From sequence record NC_025445.1: a DNA stretch of 40,981 nt; one strand, 5' to 3'. Both the position numbers and the translations under genes were made by a program. The notes beneath the pieces were generated by a model, which had not been told where the DNA came from, made no database searches, and was given only the letters and a program-made list of their open reading frames with translations. Below, in pieces: positions 260 to 33,948 of this stretch. Source of the stretch: Escherichia phage J8-65. Every line of letters starts with the position of its first letter. Positions within the stretch are counted from its first letter, which is position 1.

Positions 260-686
260 GGGCGCGGGGCTATCTATCTTTTTTCGTGGCGCTGCTGTCA
301 TAGCTCGCTTGCTGTGTGTGCTGTGTGTCGTGTGCGGTACTGTGTGCCATCCTGCTACGCTACCGCCTGCGCCCTGTGTCTCCAGCTCATCGCGTCACTG
401 TGTAACACTCTGATACTTGCTATCCGTTCGCGTTCACTCAATCGTCACTCCGTGTCTCTTTCGTTCCGCTCCGCGCTCCGCTATCGCACTGCGTGCTGCG
501 TCGCTTACGCTGCGTATCGCTACAGCTATACACTACAGTTACTTTCATTTAATCATTGATTTAAAAGGATTTATTTACGGTTATTCTGCTGTGTGTAAGC
601 TACGCAATAACCTATTCAATCAAATATTTATTATCAATGATTCCAGTGACTTATCGCCTTTTTGAGCTATTCAGTGAAAATAATTC

Positions 687-5631: not shown

Positions 5632-5663
5632 CTTACTCGTGGCATTTCGTGAGAGATGCCACC

Positions 5664-5903
5664 ATGAAAGTAACTGTATTGCACAACATCGGAGGAGATA
5701 TGCTCAAAGTAATATTGTTGTTCCTGCTTCTGGTAATTATTTGGGGAGCGTTATGGGTGGGTCTTGCATCACTGGTGCTTATCCCTGCGGTCGGTGAGTC
5801 AGCCACTTCAACACTGGGCACACTGCTCGGCATGTTGGTGGGCTGGGGTCTGATGCAGTTGAGCCTGAGTGTAGGCCAGAATCGGGGGTGGATTAAATGG
5901 TGA
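5664..5903 (+). CDS. small membrane protein with two predicted TM helices (79 aa)
   Basis: ATG 5664; VILLFLLLVIIWGALWVGLASLVLIPAV and LGTLLGMLVGWGLMQLSLSV hydrophobic segments. Confidence 0.55.
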   Translation: MKVTVLHNIGGDMLKVILLFLLLVIIWGALWVGLASLVLIPAVGESATSTLGTLLGMLVGWGLMQLSLSVGQNRGWIKW

Positions 5904-7056: not shown

Positions 7057-8322
7057 GTGTTAGACAAACTGTTGCTCTCTGTCATGCGTGAGCGAGGGAA
7101 GTATAACTCCCTGCGCCATGCCATTCCAGAGGACACTATGAGTCAGACCACAGGCTACATGCTGCGTGCGTATGGCTCATACTTCGAGGCGTTCCCGGAT
7201 TCAGATTACGTGGATATGGAAACGCTAGGCACACACGTCCGGCTCAAGACTGGGAGTACACCGGAGCAGATGGCTGCGTTCGAATCGCTATGCCAGCAGC
7301 TCAAGGAATACCAGCCGACGAAGCAGCAGACCGAAGGCATCATCGACCAGTTAGTCGAGCTGGATACAGCAGGCAAGGTTAACCTCCTTGCGCAGAGGTA
7401 CGACAATGGCGATGAGATTGATTTCATCTATGAGCTGGGCCGCCTTGCAGAAGGCGCACGCCGCAGTCGAGGGCAGTCATCTGTCACTGATTACGTTGAC
7501 GATGATGTGGTTGATATTATCAATCGGACGGATGATGACCACGGTTTCAAGTTCGGTCTCATGTGTTTGCAGGACAGCGTTAGGGTACTTCTCCCCGGTG
7601 ACTCCGTTGCAATCGGCGCTCGACCCGACAGTGGCAAGACTTCCTTCATCGCGTTTAACCTTACGAGAATGGCGGCGACAGCAGCGAAGCTGTATCCGGG
7701 CCGACCAATCCTATGGTTCAACAACGAAGGGCAGGGCATCAACATCATCCCGCGCATCTACCAAGCGGCGCTCGGCTGTACGCTCCCGGAGTTAAAGGCA
7801 CTGGGTGCAGACAGGAAGAAGTTGCATGAGAAGTACGCGAAGGCGTTGAATGCTCCGGCCAACATCATACGTGTGAAGGACATGCACGGTGCAACGTTGG
7901 CCAAAGCGGAGCAGGTGATTGAAGCAATGAATCCCTGCATCGTGGTGTGGGATATGCTGGCAAACTTCAAGTTGTCTGTGGCTGACGCTAACAGCAACAA
8001 GGCCAGCCAAGTCGAGCAGCTCTGGCAGGAGGTACGTGAGCTGGCGGTACGTCATGACTTCGTATCGCTGGCTACGGTTCAGGTATCCGCAGACGGTGCC
8101 GACGATATGTTCCCCGCGCTAGACGCACTCAAGGATTCCAAGACTGGTATCCAAGGTGCGACCGATGTGATTGTCATGCTGGGTTCCGTTGACGACCCGG
8201 CGCTGGCAGCGAGGCGCGGCGTGAGCACTCCGAAGAACAAGCGGCAGATAGCTGGGCGTCCGTCCAACGTCCGTTCGCAGGTTCACTTCTATGCTGATAA
8301 ATGTCAATTCGAGGATATGTGA
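7057..8322 (+). CDS. DnaB-like replicative DNA helicase (421 aa)
   Basis: GTG start 5 nt after AGGAGG; Walker A GARPDSGKTS; position matches T7 gp4 helicase domain. Confidence 0.75.
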   Translation: MLDKLLLSVMRERGKYNSLRHAIPEDTMSQTTGYMLRAYGSYFEAFPDSDYVDMETLGTHVRLKTGSTPEQMAAFESLCQQLKEYQPTKQQTEGIIDQLVELDTAGKVNLLAQRYDNGDEIDFIYELGRLAEGARRSRGQSSVTDYVDDDVVDIINRTDDDHGFKFGLMCLQDSVRVLLPGDSVAIGARPDSGKTSFIAFNLTRMAATAAKLYPGRPILWFNNEGQGINIIPRIYQAALGCTLPELKALGADRKKLHEKYAKALNAPANIIRVKDMHGATLAKAEQVIEAMNPCIVVWDMLANFKLSVADANSNKASQVEQLWQEVRELAVRHDFVSLATVQVSADGADDMFPALDALKDSKTGIQGATDVIVMLGSVDDPALAARRGVSTPKNKRQIAGRPSNVRSQVHFYADKCQFEDM

Positions 8323-17165: not shown

Positions 17166-17174
17166 GGGGATGTG

Positions 17175-19604
17175 ATGGATTTGCTGGCAGAACAGATTCG
17201 ACTGGAAGAAGAGGCGCGTGCCCGTCACCGGGCAGGCTGGTTAGATAACGTACGAGATGCGATAGACTCAGGCCGCGCCTCGGCGGTGCCACTGTTGCAG
17301 CGAGCGATGGTTGAGGCATACCCCACTGTCGAAGCTGCAATGCTGGATATCCTGAACGAAACTACTCGTGGGTTCGGTGCGCAGTACCGCACGTATCTTC
17401 GTGAAGTTGGGGCCAAGACCTGTGCGTCTCTGGCCCTGAGCATGGCGGTGTCCGGCGCGACCGGGCGTACCGCCGTGACTCAACTGCTCCGCGAGATGGG
17501 GCAGGCAATGATGGCTGAGGTAGTCTATGCGAGAGCTGAGAAGGCTGGCAAGCGCGAGGCTGCGTACATGGAGAAGGTTCGCCGTGACGTGAACAAGTCC
17601 AAGTCCAAGTCGCCGAACCACATCTACAACAAGGCACGCGCTGCCTCAGCCAACGTTGGTGTCGAAACTGAAATCCTGCCACAGCGTGCGCTCATCACAA
17701 TCGGCAAGTTGATGATGCGTGCTGTCGAACCGACTGGTCTGGTCAAGACTGTCCGAGTCGGCGGTAGCTTGAAGAACCGGGCGACGGCGCACTTCGCTCT
17801 GCATGACGATGTGCTCATCATGCTTGAGGATTGGATGAAGCTGCCACACCTCGGCATCAACTGTTACCCACCGCTGATTGTGCCGCCAGCTCAAATCAAT
17901 GCGAATGGCTTCGGCGGTATGTGGCACTCTCCGGGGCAGGCAGCGACGTATGTGGCAATCAGCAAGCTCAAGCACCCGGCGTACCGTAAGTTAGGTATTG
18001 ACCCACTGCCAGTGATTGAGCCGTGCATGATGCTGTCGAGCGTTCCGTTCCGCGTGAACAAGATGGTGCTGGAGTTCCTGCAAGCCAACCGAACCGGGGT
18101 GATGGGGTTGCCTGTTGCGCCAGTAGAACCGAAGCTGCCGTTCACTATCCCGGAGGGCGTAACGTTCAGCCAGTACATCAGCAAGTTCCCGGCTGAGATG
18201 CAGCAGCGTATGGATGCTGAGGCACACGAGTTCAAGGTCAAGACTCGCATCTACCACAATGACATGAAGAAGTTCACCACGCAGATTCAGGCACTGAGCA
18301 GTGCGCTGCGCGAGGCTGAGCAGTACAAAGTGTACGAGCGAATCTACCTGCCGACGTACGCCGACACCCGTGGCCGTTGCTACTATGCCTCAGCCCTGAA
18401 CCCGCAAGGCATTGACGCAATTCGTGCTTTGCTTGAACTGGCCGACCCGGTGCCGTTGGGTAAGGAGGGTCTGTTCTGGTTGAAGGTTCATGTGGCCAAC
18501 TGCTTCGGCTATGACGCTACAGACTTTGAAGACAGGGCAGCGTGGACTGATAAGACAATGCCGCGACTGCGCGAGGCTTGCCGTCTGCCGGAGGCATACG
18601 ACTCGTTCTGGTCTGAGGCTGACAGCCCACTGTGTGCATGGGCGGCTGCGGTAGAGCTGGTGCGTGCGCTGGATAGCGGGAACCCGGAAGAGTATCCGTG
18701 CCGCGTGGTGACGCAATGGGATGCAACATGCTCAGGTCTGCAACATCTCTCCGCAATGCTGCGCGACGAGGTGGGTGGTGCTGCGGTCAACCTGATTGAT
18801 TCCGTAGGACGTAAGGCAGACATCTACGTTAAGACCGCTACAGCGGCTCTGGAGGCGTTAAAGGAAGCAGAGGCAACCAACCCTACGGTCTTGGGTTCGT
18901 GGCTCGTACAGACGGGCATAGAGCGCGGCATGGCCAAGAAGCCTGTGATGACTTATGTGTACGGTGCGACACGCCACGGCATGGTGGATTACTATGCTCT
19001 GTATTTGCGAGAGCACAACACTCCGCTGCCGGAAGGGTACACCCTGTTCCAGTGTGCAATGTACATCGCCGGGTTCATGTGGGATGCAATTCCTCGCGTG
19101 GTGCCGAAGGCTGCTGAGCTGATGGCGTGGCTGCAAGCTATCGCATCGGAGGCAGCGGCTAACGGGGAGTACGTGGAGTTCACTGCTCCGTCTGGTCTGC
19201 GCATGGTGAACATGTATCAGGCTCACAAAGAAACCACTATGGGTATCAAGCTGATGGGTGTTCATGCCATCAAGCTGCGCGAGTACATCGACAAGCCAGA
19301 CGGTCGCAAATGTGCGGCTGCGATTGCTCCGAATTTTGTACACGCGATGGATGCCAGCCACATGATGAAAGTTCTGTGGGAGATGTGGAATAACGGGATT
19401 TACATGGTGTCTATCCATGATTCATTCGGTGTTGCAGCGGCTCATGCAGGTCTACTGCACAAAGTCATCCGTGAAAAGTTCGTGCAGATGTACGAGGAAC
19501 ATGACCCGATTCAACAACTTGCTGTGAGATATTCTAAGGAAGCTCCGGCGCGGGGTCAGTTGGATATCAACGAGGTCAAGAAATCCTCCAAATTCTTCTG
19601 CTAA
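17175..19604 (+). CDS. single-subunit DNA-directed RNA polymerase, T7-like (809 aa)
   Basis: ATG 17175 after AAGGGGA; WDATCSGLQHLSAM, KKPVMTYVYGAT and SIHDSFG match T7 RNAP motifs A, B, C. Confidence 0.92.
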   Translation: MDLLAEQIRLEEEARARHRAGWLDNVRDAIDSGRASAVPLLQRAMVEAYPTVEAAMLDILNETTRGFGAQYRTYLREVGAKTCASLALSMAVSGATGRTAVTQLLREMGQAMMAEVVYARAEKAGKREAAYMEKVRRDVNKSKSKSPNHIYNKARAASANVGVETEILPQRALITIGKLMMRAVEPTGLVKTVRVGGSLKNRATAHFALHDDVLIMLEDWMKLPHLGINCYPPLIVPPAQINANGFGGMWHSPGQAATYVAISKLKHPAYRKLGIDPLPVIEPCMMLSSVPFRVNKMVLEFLQANRTGVMGLPVAPVEPKLPFTIPEGVTFSQYISKFPAEMQQRMDAEAHEFKVKTRIYHNDMKKFTTQIQALSSALREAEQYKVYERIYLPTYADTRGRCYYASALNPQGIDAIRALLELADPVPLGKEGLFWLKVHVANCFGYDATDFEDRAAWTDKTMPRLREACRLPEAYDSFWSEADSPLCAWAAAVELVRALDSGNPEEYPCRVVTQWDATCSGLQHLSAMLRDEVGGAAVNLIDSVGRKADIYVKTATAALEALKEAEATNPTVLGSWLVQTGIERGMAKKPVMTYVYGATRHGMVDYYALYLREHNTPLPEGYTLFQCAMYIAGFMWDAIPRVVPKAAELMAWLQAIASEAAANGEYVEFTAPSGLRMVNMYQAHKETTMGIKLMGVHAIKLREYIDKPDGRKCAAAIAPNFVHAMDASHMMKVLWEMWNNGIYMVSIHDSFGVAAAHAGLLHKVIREKFVQMYEEHDPIQQLAVRYSKEAPARGQLDINEVKKSSKFFC

Positions 19605-19687
19605 TTTAGTCTTATATTTCTTGCACTTAATGAAAGTAACTGTTCTGGTATACCCAGATTACTCTCGTAGTGCATTGGAGATTCTCT

Positions 19688-19870
19688 ATGAAAGACTCAC
19701 CATTAGACAGAGTGACGTTCAACAAAGGACAACTAGCTCTCTTAGAGAAAGCATTCGGTACATGGGAGAAGGTAGGGAAGACCATCACCCATGAATCAGA
19801 TATCTCACTACTGAATAGAGAAGCAGGTAAACAGGACGTGTTGGACTTCATCCGTGAAAGGACTGTGTAA
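19688..19870 (+). CDS. hypothetical protein (60 aa) in low-GC island
   Basis: ATG 19688 with GGAG RBS; atypical low-GC codon usage. Confidence 0.5.
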   Translation: MKDSPLDRVTFNKGQLALLEKAFGTWEKVGKTITHESDISLLNREAGKQDVLDFIRERTV

Positions 19871-20289
19871 TGAAAGTATCTGTAGTGGACAACATACATC
19901 ACACCACGATGCCAATCGACATTCGGATTGCTGTAGCCAAAGGTATACAGGAAGAACGCCAATGGTCTGATTTACCGTGGGATGTGATAGTAGACGCCAT
20001 GTATGATGCCACCGCCAACGGATGCACTGATGTGTATGTCCACGATTCTGACGGTGCTCTCATGGGCTGTGCTCATCTCGGTGAGCTGTTCGATATTCAT
20101 GTGGGGCCGTGTGCCGTTGTAATGGCTATGTATGTATGGCCCCAGTATCGCAACCGGGGAGTGACCCGTCTCATCCTCCGCGAACTCAAACGCGCTGCCC
20201 GGCAAGCTGGGTTGCGCTGGTGCGGTTACTCCCACATGGTACGTCCTTATGTTCAGGAATACCGATTCATTGATTTGGAGAAACCGTAA
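19870..20289 (+). CDS. hypothetical protein, possible GNAT-like fold (139 aa)
   Basis: VVMAMYVWPQYRNRGVTRLILREL resembles GNAT motif A region; low-GC. Confidence 0.45.
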   Translation: MKVSVVDNIHHTTMPIDIRIAVAKGIQEERQWSDLPWDVIVDAMYDATANGCTDVYVHDSDGALMGCAHLGELFDIHVGPCAVVMAMYVWPQYRNRGVTRLILRELKRAARQAGLRWCGYSHMVRPYVQEYRFIDLEKP

Positions 20290-20549
20290 TGGGTAGCGTA
20301 GGCAAAGTTTTCAAAGGCATTGGCTCTGTCTTCGGACTGGGTAGCCAAACCCCGAAGTACACCATCAAGACCGACCCGAATCAGGTTCGTGCGGAGACGA
20401 TGAACGCGAACCTGCAAGCAGATTTGTCGAACGATAACACCCCAACGATTCAGTCCGGTGGTCAGGTTAGTTCTGCCTCCGATACTCTGTCGGGCCGACG
20501 CCGCCGCACCGGAACGGGTGTAGCAAGCAACCTCGGCATTGGGAGTTAA
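20289..20549 (+). CDS. small virion protein, T7 gp6.7-like (86 aa)
   Basis: Gly/Ser-rich with basic RRRR patch, directly upstream of portal as in T7. Confidence 0.5.
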   Translation: MGSVGKVFKGIGSVFGLGSQTPKYTIKTDPNQVRAETMNANLQADLSNDNTPTIQSGGQVSSASDTLSGRRRRTGTGVASNLGIGS

Positions 20550-20552
20550 CGT

Positions 20553-22115
20553 ATGACCCAAGACGCGCAGAACGTCAGCTATGAGTCTCTGTGGCAGAAA
20601 TACCGGGACAGCAACGTTGTGACGAAGGCTCGTGAGTACAGCCGCTATACACTGGCTAAGCTGGTGAGCGAGTATGACCTGGCTGACACGGACGATATGA
20701 ACCGCCAGCAGATTACTCGTGACTATCAATCTGTCGGCGCTCTGCTCGTCAACAACCTCGTTGCTCGATTGGGCGAGTTCCTGTTCCCGGCTTCCGCTCG
20801 TTTCGTGAAGCTGAAACTTAACAAGGTGTCTGAGCAGCAGCGGCAGCAACTGTCGCAAGTCAATCAGGCACTCATCACTATTGAGAAAGCCATCGTTGAC
20901 AAAGCCAAAGAAAACGGTGGTTATGCCGACCTGCTCCAATGTATTGCCCAGCAAGCCGTGACTGGTAACGCCGCGCTGTACCGCGATATGGAAACTGGAA
21001 CGTACCGTGTGTACGGTCTGGAATCCTTCGTGGTGCAGCGCGACGGTCGTGGCGTTGTAACGGACGCAATCGTCAAGGAACGCATCCAGTGGGATGCGTT
21101 GCCTATGGAGTTCCAGAAGCAGCTCGAAGCTAAGGGCTTCCGTTGCAGCGGTAACAAACGCATTTGGCTGTACACCCGCGTCAAGCGTGTGCCGCGCCAG
21201 AACAACTTTGGCTATGAAGTGACGCAGCAGGTGGGCAACTACCAAGGCTGCGTTTATACCCCCGGTAAGGATTACTACCCTGAAAAAGTCTGCCCTTGGA
21301 TTTTCCCAGTGTGGTCTTTGAAGTCTGGCGAGCATTATGGTCGCGGGATTGTCGAAGACCACGCTGGGGATTTCGCACGTCTGTCGATGCTGAGTGAGCA
21401 CAGCGCCCTGTACATGCAAGAAGCCTTGCGCGTGCTGTGGAAGCTGACTGGCTCAGGCGGCAACGCTGACGATATCGAATCCGCAGAGACTGGTCAGGTG
21501 GTTCCGCTACAGTCCGGCACCCAACTTGAGGGGCTGGAGGTCGGGGATTACCAGAAAGTCCAACAGGCTCGTGACGAGATTAACCAGATTGTGCAGCGAC
21601 TCGCGCAGGCGTTCATGTACACTGGTGAGTTCCGTGATTCTGAACGTACCACCGCAACCGAAGTGCAGCAGGTAGCAACCAGCGCCGAACGCGGGTTGGG
21701 TGGCCCGTACTCCATGCAGGCTAAGACCCTCCAGATTCCGCTGGCGTACGTCTTGCTCGCGGAGATTGACGAGTCCACCGTACCCGATATCGTTGGCAAC
21801 ATCCTATCCCTTCAAGTCGAAGCAGGTCTGGATGCCCTCGGTCGCAGTATCGAAGCAGAGACGCTCATTCGTGCGCTCTCAGATTCGCAGGCAGCAATGG
21901 TTGCTGTCCAGAACATCAACGGCGTTGCTAACACCATCGACCCACATAAAGTCCTTGAGGTTATCTTCGCTTCCAACGGCGTCGCGCTGGATGACTATCG
22001 CAAGTCACCACAAGACTTGGCCAATGAAGGCCGTGCCATCGACAATGCAGCAGCCGCTGCCGCAGGCGTACAGCCGGGCGCAGTCGATGTAGCGCCGAAC
22101 GTCGCACAGATTTAA
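20553..22115 (+). CDS. portal (head-tail connector) protein (520 aa)
   Basis: size and position (portal-scaffold-capsid order) as T7 gp8. Confidence 0.8.
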   Translation: MTQDAQNVSYESLWQKYRDSNVVTKAREYSRYTLAKLVSEYDLADTDDMNRQQITRDYQSVGALLVNNLVARLGEFLFPASARFVKLKLNKVSEQQRQQLSQVNQALITIEKAIVDKAKENGGYADLLQCIAQQAVTGNAALYRDMETGTYRVYGLESFVVQRDGRGVVTDAIVKERIQWDALPMEFQKQLEAKGFRCSGNKRIWLYTRVKRVPRQNNFGYEVTQQVGNYQGCVYTPGKDYYPEKVCPWIFPVWSLKSGEHYGRGIVEDHAGDFARLSMLSEHSALYMQEALRVLWKLTGSGGNADDIESAETGQVVPLQSGTQLEGLEVGDYQKVQQARDEINQIVQRLAQAFMYTGEFRDSERTTATEVQQVATSAERGLGGPYSMQAKTLQIPLAYVLLAEIDESTVPDIVGNILSLQVEAGLDALGRSIEAETLIRALSDSQAAMVAVQNINGVANTIDPHKVLEVIFASNGVALDDYRKSPQDLANEGRAIDNAAAAAAGVQPGAVDVAPNVAQI

Positions 22116-22125
22116 TGGAGATTAC

Positions 22126-23346
22126 ATGTCAGGTGAATACCAACCTACTGCCGCACCCGCTCCCCAAAACGTACCCGCTGGCCCGACCTATGCTCCCTCT
22201 GGTCACAGCGGTAATGATTATGGTGGAAGCCCACAGGTGGTACAGAACCCAGCGCTTGGTCGCTTAGGTACGCCGATTGAACTGCCTCGCGGCGGCGCAA
22301 CTCCGCAGCCTCAGCAGCCTTTCGCGCAGCCGGGCCTGATTCCAAATCAGGAGTACAACCCGTATGCCAACCAGTCGCAGGGAAATCCAAGCCCTTACGC
22401 ACCCGTACCTCAGCAGAACCCGTATGGTTCTCCGCAACCGCAGTCGCCGTACGCGGCACCACCTATTCCGATTAATGGGTATCCGCAACAGGGCTACACG
22501 CCTCCGGGCCAAGCGGCTCCGGCTCAGCAGTTCCAGCAGCCTGTAGCACCGCAGCCATATGCTTTCGACCCGTACGGTCGTCAGCCGGGCCAGCCACAGC
22601 AGCAGCCTCAGCAGCCGCAGCAGCAGACTCAACCTTTCCAGCAGTTGCAGCCGCAACAGCAGCCGCCTGTCCAGAACCAGCAGCTCACTGCTGACAAGCT
22701 GGCCAAGCAGGAAGGAGGTCTAACCCCGGAGCAGGTTGCACAGATTTTCCCTGACCAAACCAGTCAGGCAGTATTCCAAGGCATGGACACCATCGCCCGT
22801 GGCCAGAACATCGACCTGCTTGCAGCGTTCGGTCAGGCTTACGAGCGACGCGACCCGACCTTGGTGAACGACCGTTACCTTGCGCAGTTCGACCCGCAGA
22901 CCGTGGCTATCCTGAAAGGACAGTTCGGTGCGCTGGTAGCCGCAGGGCAGCAGCGCGATGCGCAGATTGAGCAGCAGGTGTACCAGATGGCTGGTGGCGA
23001 GCAACGTTGGAACCTCGCAGTACAGGCATTCAACACCGCAGCAGACCCTGCAACAGTCGATGCTGTCGTAGCAGCAGTGAACTCAGGCGACCCGAATCAG
23101 GTACGTCTGGCAGTGAACACCATCCTCCAGTTCACTGGTGCCCAAGGCAATATGATTCAACGTAGTGGTCAGAGTTTGACGCCCAATGGTGGCGGCCAAG
23201 CACCTCAAGAGGTGATGACCAATGAGGCTTTCCGTCAGCATCTTGGCTGGCTTGAGCAGGCGCACCCGGTTGGTTCCCCGGAATACAACCGTCACTATCA
23301 AGAGCTGGTAGAGAAGCGTCGTCAAGCCAAGGCTATGGGCTACTAA
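22126..23346 (+). CDS. scaffolding protein with P/Q-rich low-complexity N-terminal half (406 aa)
   Basis: position between portal and capsid; N-terminal ~190 aa Pro/Gln/Tyr-rich. Confidence 0.65.
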   Translation: MSGEYQPTAAPAPQNVPAGPTYAPSGHSGNDYGGSPQVVQNPALGRLGTPIELPRGGATPQPQQPFAQPGLIPNQEYNPYANQSQGNPSPYAPVPQQNPYGSPQPQSPYAAPPIPINGYPQQGYTPPGQAAPAQQFQQPVAPQPYAFDPYGRQPGQPQQQPQQPQQQTQPFQQLQPQQQPPVQNQQLTADKLAKQEGGLTPEQVAQIFPDQTSQAVFQGMDTIARGQNIDLLAAFGQAYERRDPTLVNDRYLAQFDPQTVAILKGQFGALVAAGQQRDAQIEQQVYQMAGGEQRWNLAVQAFNTAADPATVDAVVAAVNSGDPNQVRLAVNTILQFTGAQGNMIQRSGQSLTPNGGGQAPQEVMTNEAFRQHLGWLEQAHPVGSPEYNRHYQELVEKRRQAKAMGY

Positions 23347-33800: not shown

Positions 33801-33948
33801 TGCGACTGGCGGTTCCCTGCTGTCGGGTGATATTGACCAAGCTGGGCATGATGCTCGCAAAGCTGCGGGTAACATCATTCAAGCACTTCCCCTCATTTCC
33901 ATTGTGCCGGGTGTCCGAGCACTCAACGAAGCAGTTAAGGGCGAATAA
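30847..33948 (+). CDS. internal virion protein C (1033 aa)
   Basis: largest structural ORF, position as T7 gp16-like ejection protein. Confidence 0.7.
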   Translation: MITQESLDKFMAPKQGANAPTLVIPAPVKAETLSTPLQDATRQGAVEQFEKMQELEATPIATALSASVKNWDTTQLFDAAFNKPTFQADPNFKPNEALQQVQFPIGEDDRTFLFKSKSMDEFNWRTQQLQEMRERTQLAQTAPVMNAVLQFADPLYLATDLLSMGAGTALKLGRLGTAAVGAASTAAAMTAVGNEARPVSQNEIIFAAALHGAATTAFYRPAPVQRSLADMSPEEFAAEMQRRNGIDPNNPPQFDPENAMAPLAMSLGFGGRRGAMEVDEVPESIRATAQRGLDLARRGEQTNPKRPFLEWSLFKTFSQHSDESSALAGRLLDDPLNPNMTSAASIQRETQARFGVLLNQYEDTLRHALNTDGWTNVRRFVDPVGYRRAQQEFEQAVRLELDRRMIDPNFKGANANVAQAADRLGEYSRAVGRELEAKGMVEPGFVEKNPYYYPRRMNVTKVEQAEQLLGKKAFMKQMTTAVQRGIGSDRPTANVIAHAMVERARRKGYGIDNSGHIINKEGRDELLEIINNAKGFDEAAKARASALLREAGEDSGRAPMLKARINIDMMHQLGPNLQVRDLFDDSIASMMDSYNRRITGRLALHEAGLGTDAERAAAREALAKSIPDGNARRQALDQYDNIISYYMGAPVGEEMPQFMRQLSALTQATGLAASGLWQLVEYGTMMQRFGAVNTFRAMMRTVPEARALFKQMRASTVEGRQLALDTEEALTAAVASDIRMRPIMQHYDDMFSADKSPWVMRMEHLRDATMFINMQKYIHFHQTRTNAALVMQTLRKAAEGDAKAIAAMKTYGANDQLLADIRKEVGKSGTKPDAWDEGVFNRSRIVMMNAMDDAIVRARVGELPAFAEFSTLGKFLFTFRRFVAATHNKTLVGTWNREGARGLATLMAYQYPLAMMATAANNVISGKGFDDKRPIGALAGQALNYLGAIGFASEFTGVLTGQQRSFGAPGLLFLDRMYGIAGATAATGGSLLSGDIDQAGHDARKAAGNIIQALPLISIVPGVRALNEAVKGE

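Follow-up and report, generated by a model that had tools for sequence, protein, structure and literature searches.

Genes between the RNA polymerase and the structural block

Positions 19605 to 20289 of Escherichia phage J8-65 (NC_025445.1; the whole record of 40,981 nucleotides is the window analysed here) contain a short spacer and two small genes. The genome shows the phiKMV-type layout, in which the gene of the phage RNA polymerase (RNAP, 17172-19604) closes the replication block and adjoins the structural genes. A sequence-only reading of this stretch had claimed two open reading frames (ORFs) of 60 and 139 amino acids, and both are present as described and are real genes. The locus comprises the following features:

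17172-19604, plus strand: gene of a single-subunit phage RNAP, 810 amino acids (taken from the ORF list; annotated as RNA polymerase in the phages smaasur, Lidtsur and RZ4)
19605-19687, plus strand: non-coding spacer of 83 nt with a GC content (guanine plus cytosine) of 0.349
19688-19870, plus strand: ORF60, 60 amino acids
19870-20289, plus strand: ORF139, the GNAT gene, 139 amino acids
20289-20549, plus strand: ORF86, a small virion protein whose gene opens the structural block (PHROG 35536, 'virion structural protein', expectation value (E) 1.4e-51; annotated as a structural protein in relatives)

The 2 kb around this stretch are 96% identical to Escherichia phage smaasur (species Bonnellvirus J865, Autographiviridae) and 78-81% identical to other bonnellviruses (Escherichia, Cronobacter, Pantoea, Kosakonia and Enterobacter). 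In every related record the gene order is the same: RNAP, an ORF of about 60 amino acids, an ORF of 139 amino acids, the small virion protein and the portal. The stop codon of ORF139 overlaps the start codon of ORF86 (TAATG). We interpret 19605-20289 as the conserved junction between the RNAP gene and the structural genes of a phiKMV-type phage of the genus Bonnellvirus, which carries two promoters for the phage's own RNAP (P1 and P2), ORF60 and a GNAT gene homologous to that of Rac, and not as an imported island; the probability of this reading is estimated at roughly 75%.

A T7-type motif in four copies

The search in which 18-mers from the spacer were slid against the whole genome revealed a T7-type motif of 18 nt, ATGAAAGTAACTGTAGTG, that occurs four times with at most 2 mismatches and not once in 100 shuffled sequences. 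The copies, and a hairpin that adjoins one of them, are:

531-548, minus strand: motif copy with the exact consensus, in the AT-rich non-coding left end, antisense to all genes
5664-5681, plus strand: motif copy right behind a strong hairpin and in front of the replication genes
19630-19647, plus strand (19628-19647 with the two preceding bases): motif copy in the spacer, about 25 nt after the RNAP stop codon; P1, predicted late promoter of the phage RNAP, TAATGAAAGTAACTGTTCTG
19644-19658, plus strand: small hairpin TCTGG-tatac-CCAGA with a stem of 5 bp, at the predicted positions +1 to +14 of the P1 transcript
19870-19887, plus strand (19868-19887 with the two preceding bases): motif copy with one mismatch on codons 1-6 of the GNAT gene; P2

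Extended by the two preceding bases the motif reads TAATGAAAGTAACTGTAG, and the T7 promoter reads TAATACGACTCACTATAG; 10 of 17 positions are common, including TAAT at -17 to -14 and ACT at -6 to -4. By alignment with the T7 phi promoters, start sites are predicted at about 19645-19648 for P1 and at about 19885 for P2, the latter 15 nt past the A of the GNAT start codon. When five other bonnellvirus genomes were scanned with up to 4 mismatches, four copies were found in smaasur and in RZ4, three in Lidtsur and in usur, and two in aldrigsur. The three non-coding sites (antisense at the left end, in front of the replication genes and after the RNAP gene) are orthologous in the bonnellviruses scanned, with no copy in front of the replication genes of aldrigsur at this threshold. 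An antisense copy in the non-coding end region was seen in all five of these genomes and also in the Pantoea phage LIMEzero (638-652).

The copies after the RNAP gene are orthologous in 12 bonnellviruses. Among these 12 genomes the motif exists in four variants (GTAACT, GTGACT, GTGTCT and GCTACT), each of which is common to the copies within one genome; the version of RZ4 ends in GACTATAGTGA. RNAP residues ~670-700, encoded at 19180-19270 of the window, align with the specificity loop of the T7 enzyme, and the segments at this place differ by motif class: ...KETTM-GIKLMGVHAIKL, KEIALNNINLMGIHGIKL, KETMLNNINLMGIHSIKL and KESPM-HLHLMGVHQIKL. The motif varies in step with the loop segment of the polymerase, as is expected of a promoter that is read by the phage's own RNAP.

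The copy at 5664-5681 is preceded by a hairpin (5640-5662, UGGCAUUUCGUGAGAGAUGCCAC) of -13 kcal/mol and a z score of -6.4, which was missed by a simple terminator scan because it is not followed by a run of T. Downstream of this copy, GGAGGAG is followed by an ATG at 5700. As a whole, 5640-5681 has the appearance of a terminator-promoter pair that precedes the replication genes, analogous to the one annotated in LIMEzero at 7255-7313.

Two distantly related phages allow a comparison of the layout. For Pseudomonas phage LUZ19, the phage-specific promoters P001 and P007-P009 were mapped by ONT-cappable-seq (Putzeys et al. 2024, PMC10914365), P001 being antisense in the early region, and P007 and P008 standing behind the RNAP gene (PMC10914365). 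We located the LUZ19 motif 8 nt after the RNAP stop codon and again 197 nt further on, inside the 5' end of gp27. Both genomes contain four copies of a motif of about 20 bp, and the window has copies at positions equivalent to P001, P007 and P008 (531-548 antisense, and those after the RNAP gene), whereas the promoter sequences themselves are unrelated (GgtTATGTCACacACAnnGG versus TAATGAAAGTAACTGTAGTG). The fourth copy precedes the replication genes in the window but the capsid gene in LUZ19. The embedded copy also differs in its place, as it covers the GNAT start codon in the window and lies within gp27 in LUZ19, where it has been mapped, while in the bonnellviruses it is predicted from sequence.

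In LIMEzero (genus Waewaevirus, FR751545) the same four-site layout is found with a different motif, AAGGCAAGCACTAAG. Its record annotates two promoters only: a putative phage-specific promoter 2 nt after the RNAP stop codon, which corresponds to the position of 19630 in the window, and a phage promoter that follows a terminator in front of the primase gene (7255-7313), which corresponds to 5664. Three further matches to the motif, at 638-652 (minus strand), 20744-20758 (plus strand) and 33870-33884 (plus strand), are not annotated. Two of them are exact (638-652 and 20744), and the exact copy at 20744-20758 forms codons 2-6 of the LIMEzero GNAT gene. It had been suggested from the sequence of the window that the spacer may hold the start of late transcription; the T7-type motif copy at the very place where LUZ19 has a mapped promoter and LIMEzero an annotated one supports this suggestion in silico.

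A similar arrangement is known from T7 (NC_001604), where phi1.1A and phi1.1B follow gene 1 at distances of 26 and 101 nt, in DNA of 36% GC. Both phages have two tandem promoters within ~100-280 nt of the end of the RNAP gene, in AT-rich surroundings and with small genes next to them, apart from the promoter positions they have in common. The genomic context is different: T7 has an early RNAP gene, and phi1.1A and phi1.1B (class II) drive the genes of DNA metabolism and the origin, whereas in the window the RNAP gene stands beside the structural genes and the promoters are predicted to drive late genes.

P2 (TAATGAAAGTATCTGTAGTG) shares sequence with the ORF60 stop codon and spans codons 1-6 of the GNAT gene. 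Of 12 bonnellviruses, 10 have a GNAT gene whose first 12 nt match the genome's own P1 variant exactly, and the N-terminus of the protein follows this variant (MKVSVV, MKVTIM, MKVSTM or MKATTM). Since the N-terminal residues change with the motif, selection at the DNA level is suggested. In the structure model of the protein, these residues form strand beta1 with a predicted local distance difference test score (pLDDT) of 97. The overlap of promoter and GNAT start would be a compact example of DNA that satisfies a promoter and the coding of a beta-strand at once.

Several observations weigh against this interpretation of the motif. The promoter calls for the bonnellviruses are based on sequence logic and analogy, and the match between motif class and specificity loop spans four classes only and is confounded by shared ancestry. 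The start region of P1 in the window is non-consensus (ACTGTTCTG, not ACTGTAGTG), and three of the four classes have a P2 whose start region deviates from the consensus. In the classes of RZ4, aldrigsur and usur, the first 12-14 nt of P2 are kept, and the start region reads ACTACTATG or ACTATTATG versus ACTATAGTG; because the part responsible for binding in T7 is kept and the start region differs, P2 of these classes may bind RNAP without firing well. In Lidtsur, P2 agrees with the genome's own P1 at only 12 of 18 positions.

Precedents exist in LUZ19, LIMEzero and T7 for the gene pair, the Rac family and the placing of promoters behind the RNAP gene. Promoters are not mentioned in the Bonnellvirus literature searched, and these phages are not named in PMC11880802. 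What appears to be undescribed is the promoter consensus of Bonnellvirus, the existence of four variants of it, each with a different specificity loop, and the conserved overlap of promoter and GNAT start. Our results provide a candidate promoter consensus for Bonnellvirus RNAPs, for which no published one was found. The four natural pairs of polymerase and promoter might be orthogonal and could serve as expression parts.

Proposed transcription from P1 and P2 and other readings of the motif

According to the proposed mechanism, the phage polymerase, once made, would start late transcription at P1 and P2. Transcripts from P1 would extend over both small genes, ORF60 and GNAT, and over the structural genes. 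The predicted start of P2 lies downstream of the GNAT ATG, and messages from P2 would therefore be devoid of the GNAT start codon and would serve the structural genes only. Thereby the structural genes would be expressed at a higher dose than the two small genes. A more speculative extension, which we regard as unlikely, is that P2 acts as a built-in timer shifting expression from a takeover enzyme to structural proteins, and/or that P1 and P2 together form a transcription-activated origin of the T7 style. As a timer, P2 would be bound by accumulating polymerase, which would start there and produce messages skipping the GNAT start codon, and the use of P2 could interfere with transcription of ORF60 and the GNAT gene from P1 or by read-through. 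A copy of the P2 type on the GNAT start is kept in two genera whose promoter sequences differ.

The origin deserves consideration as a reading of its own, in which P1 and P2 in their AT-rich surroundings are the primary origin and RNAP primes replication or opens the DNA, as in T7; such a function may coexist with late transcription. The region of phi1.1A and phi1.1B is the primary origin of T7, and the layout of the window resembles it, the T7 promoters at 26 and 101 nt after gene 1 being followed by a stretch of 28% GC. Furthermore, the two copies in the window stand 240 nt apart in the second-deepest GC trough of the genome, and this arrangement is kept in LIMEzero and LUZ19. However, most of the AT-rich DNA of the window is coding sequence (ORF60), and its GC content is not as extreme as that in T7 (0.30-0.42 per 50 bp versus 0.28), and the promoter copy at 5664 in front of the replication genes is an equally good candidate. 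To our knowledge, a T7-style origin has never been located in phiKMV-type phages, nor has an origin of any kind been mapped in a phiKMV-like phage, which also counts against this reading. On balance, we consider a primary origin at P1 and P2 a minority option.

Clearly less probable still is that the 18-mer is the binding site of another protein or a signal for processing or translation at the RNA level, with the GNAT start resembling the motif since many small genes begin with MKV. An ATG is indeed present in every copy, and at 19870 it truly serves as a start codon; the reading frame of the spacer copy is that of ORF60 in usur and Kc261, where this copy was annotated as the ORF60 start. However, one copy is directed opposite to all genes, so that a signal at the mRNA level does not fit. 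The ORF that begins at the spacer ATG (19630-19794, 54 codons in the window) was rejected as an alternative gene because its length is not conserved in the relatives, where it varies between 12 and 88 codons. In addition, the N-terminal amino acids of GNAT track the motif, which points to selection on DNA, and the motif is similar to the T7 promoter, with classes that track the specificity-loop region of RNAP.

RNA structure in the spacer was considered in the same context. The whole spacer folds with -22.2 kcal/mol (z -3.4), and a comparable structure is found in some relatives only. The long hairpin that encloses the motif, which would speak for an RNA-level signal, reaches z -3.4 in the window, -3.7 in RZ4 and -3.9 in aldrigsur but is not significant in Lidtsur, usur and LIMEzero, and it was not adopted as an element. 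A search of Rfam at E <= 1 over 19200-20600 returned nothing. In the spacers of RZ4 (2084-2193) and aldrigsur (2684-2794), TAGTGATATGTATCA occurs twice, before the promoter and at the predicted +1, and the two copies can pair into the long hairpin. The small hairpin at 19644-19658, noticed in the sequence-only reading, is present, but with -5.5 kcal/mol and z -2.1 it is marginal, as 10 of 200 shuffled sequences fold as well, and it was not accepted as a significant structure. It may form a 5' stem-loop or represent just part of a conserved initially transcribed sequence. At the same spot the relatives have different short palindromes (GGTATACC, GTGATATGTATCAC and GTGATAGATATCAC).

The two small genes

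For ORF139, a possible GNAT motif had been noticed in the sequence, and this assignment is borne out by Pfam matches above the cut-offs (PF00583 with 32.2 bits, cut-off 20.7; PF13508 with 28.9 bits, cut-off 27) and by a confident AlphaFold model (pLDDT 93, predicted template modelling score 0.86). The model consists of the elements E2-8, H16-29, H37-46, E52-58, E64-75, E79-89, H98-112, E117-125 and E128-135 (E, strand; H, helix) and has the GNAT fold, with a mixed beta-sheet, the helices alpha1 and alpha2, and helix alpha3 after beta4. A Foldseek search with the model gave 392 matches at E <= 0.001, of which the top ones are all GNATs. Between the last two strands no helix is predicted, as in a minimal GNAT. 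From these sequence matches and the model, ORF139 is judged to be a minimal GNAT-fold N-acetyltransferase. Compared with the acetyl-CoA pyrophosphate-binding motif A (Q/R-x-x-G-x-G/A) of the beta4-alpha3 junction, residues 94-99 (R-N-R-G-V-T) agree in R-x-x-G but have Thr in place of the final G/A, a partial match. The family alignment shows no variation at R94 and almost none at G97 and V98. The protein (encoded at 19870-20286) also matches PHROG 2746 (E 2.2e-12), labelled 'host range and adsorption protein', and for a GNAT-like family this label looks questionable.

ORF139 is found in full length in 20 records and with weaker matches in 116 more, mostly Pseudomonas phiKMV-like phages; in all 136 records it has the same position behind the RNAP gene. 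The equivalent gene of phiKMV, LUZ19, LKD16, LKA1 and LIMEzero is matched by tblastn. LUZ19 gp28 is Rac, an acetyltransferase involved in host shutoff (2020, PMC7552054), and it matches ORF139 in BLASTP with E 4e-14 and 34% identity over 108 amino acids. The core D..HVG...Y.P.YRN.GV is kept between the two proteins. ORF139 also has the position of the Rac gene, which follows the RNAP gene and a small ORF and directly adjoins the first of the structural genes. The Rac homologues tabulated in PMC7552054 include LIMEzero ORF36, which is 54-55% identical to the GNAT of the window. By sequence comparison, ORF139 is thus assigned as a homologue of LUZ19 gp28 (Rac). The proteins have in common the GNAT fold and the location of their genes between a small ORF after the RNAP gene and the first virion gene. 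They differ in length, as Rac comprises 157 amino acids and the protein of the window 139, the latter being without the C-terminal tail of LUZ19, and in their host, which is E. coli for the GNAT of the window and Pseudomonas for Rac.

The GNAT of the window would most likely acetylate host proteins with acetyl-CoA during host takeover. Here, some findings speak against a function equal to that of Rac. The acetyl-CoA pocket of Rac is written QYV---------AR, and Q, Y, V and R were mutated in LUZ19 and are required for the phenotype (PMC7552054). In ORF139 the pocket reads MYV...TR, so that Y88, V89 and R100 are retained, with Met at the place of Gln. RNA polymerase alpha-subunit cleavage was not seen with the homologue of LKA1, the effect being specific to Phikmvvirus (PMC7552054); the pocket of this non-cleaving homologue reads QYV...SP. 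As the published effect is genus-specific, the transfer of the Rac function to ORF139 is uncertain. The assignment places a Rac-type acetyltransferase in phages of E. coli, and the mechanism that leads from Rac to cleavage of RNA polymerase alpha could be studied in a far more tractable host.

ORF60 begins with an ATG that is preceded by GGAG 7 nt upstream. It was found in 20 phage records with 56-100% identity and always at the same position, and its product matches a protein of Escherichia phage J8-65 with 100% identity. The variable sites fall 19/13/47 on the first, second and third codon position, which identifies it as a real coding sequence. A profile of ORF60 ranked LUZ19 gp27 (E 6.8e-5) and LKA1 ORF38 (E 0.019) as the top two of 274 ORF fragments from the LUZ19 and LKA1 loci; in pairwise BLASTP comparisons, LUZ19 gp27 gave only E 0.067 and LKA1 ORF38 no match. 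ORF60 is accordingly judged a distant homologue of LUZ19 gp27, on the strength of a profile search restricted to syntenic loci. An exhaustive profile search retrieved only 7 proteins at E <= 0.001, of which 5 are clear relatives.

No Pfam or PHROG family was matched by ORF60. It is a conserved small helical protein, and its best AlphaFold model has a pLDDT of 84, with a reliable result in 1 of 5 runs; a search with this model gave no significant fold match. Against the PDB, the sole matches of the family profile were homeodomains, all of them weak (best Hox-A13, E 0.09), and in 5 of 10 members the Pfam Homeodomain family PF00046 was the top weak match (best E 0.052). They have the pattern RV.FTK.QL..LE..F in common. 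The weak sequence signal for a homeodomain-like fold is unsupported by the structure model, and a ribbon-helix-helix fold, our initial guess, is unsupported as well. In usur (MN850624, 20844-21110) the ORF60 homologue is annotated with 88 amino acids because the ATG of the promoter motif is in frame with ORF60 there, as it is in Kc261. The annotated start in usur is probably wrong, and the conserved protein begins about 27 codons later.

Base composition around the RNA polymerase stop codon

The low GC content that had been claimed for 19605-20289 is real, with 0.474 against 0.557 in the genome. Windows of 685 bp have a mean GC content of 0.556 with a standard deviation (SD) of 0.025, which places this stretch at about -3.3 SD in the sliding-window analysis. 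At this scale only two regions fall below -2 SD, the zone discussed here and the non-coding left end (136-1366). The borders are not where the sequence-only reading had seen them. Instead of an onset immediately after the RNAP stop codon, the zone opens about 300 nt inside the RNAP gene, whose last 205 nt already have a GC content of 0.468, and instead of lasting up to the next gene it closes in the first third of ORF139 (0.47 in the 5' 180 nt, 0.55 in the 3' 240 nt). The minimum is reached at 19556-19955. By parts, the GC content amounts to 0.349 in the spacer, 0.437 in ORF60 and 0.514 in ORF139, and it is normal in ORF86 (0.556). Amino-acid composition was tried as the full cause of the dip in the RNAP tail and accounts for it only partially, since codon positions 1 and 2 (GC 0.46) and third positions (GC3 of 0.55 versus 0.66 in the whole gene) are both lowered.

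The deviating codon usage that had been described (TTA, ATA and AGA) is correct in its direction, as rare codons are enriched, but the counts are only 0 to 3. ORF60 contains TTA twice (expected 0.16), AGA twice (expected 0.14) and no ATA, and ORF139 contains ATA three times (expected 0.35), TTA once and no AGA. The GC3 values of 0.48 for ORF60 and 0.53 for ORF139 compare with 0.63 +/- 0.07 for 42 genes, among which ORF60 has the highest fraction of TTA, ATA and AGA and the second-lowest GC3.

For the comparison with relatives, GC profiles were aligned on the RNAP stop codon. In all seven genomes profiled, which comprise the window, LIMEzero and five bonnellvirus relatives, the dip is shaped alike, with a decrease of 0.10 to 0.20 around the stop codon, an onset about 300 nt before it, the deepest part between 0 and +200 and an end by +400 to +500. 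In LUZ19 and LKA1, with an overall GC content of 0.62, a weaker dip down to 0.49-0.55 follows the RNAP gene at the same place. The composition of the GNAT gene is normal in RZ4, aldrigsur, usur and LIMEzero (GC 0.53-0.545, GC3 about 0.61). All four copies of the promoter motif lie in local GC minima, at percentiles 0.8-4.7 of 300-bp windows, and therefore low GC goes with the promoters. A point that this interpretation leaves over is ORF60, whose low GC content (GC3 0.33-0.53 in all relatives) is not fully accounted for by promoters.

GNATs are frequent accessory genes in phages, and together with the low GC content and the rare codons of ORF60 this would favour the view, taken in the sequence-only reading, of a horizontally acquired moron, with ORF60 and the GNAT gene as a recently imported cassette and a foreign origin behind the deviating composition. 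This view fails, since both genes and their composition recur in the relatives, an outcome that the sequence-only reading had itself named as refuting, and we consider it very improbable: presence is not patchy, both genes being syntenic in 20 of 20 related records and having syntenic homologues in Pseudomonas phiKMV-like phages, the dip recurs in six relatives of two genera and begins within the RNAP gene, and the GNAT gene of several relatives has a normal composition. Nor do the two genes form a self-contained unit, as the promoter present is the predicted late promoter of the phage itself and the GNAT gene is joined to the next gene by the overlap of stop and start codon; terminators or insertion scars were not found, and scanning of 19000-20700 gave neither a sigma-70-like promoter on the plus strand nor an intrinsic terminator. 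The compositional break thus marks a regulatory region and not imported DNA, by which a false lead is removed.

Further downstream, the first ~190 residues of the scaffolding protein (22126-23346) form a long low-complexity region rich in Q and P, e.g. PQQQPQQPQQQTQPFQQLQPQQQPP. In the record of usur, a repeat_region is annotated inside the same scaffolding gene.

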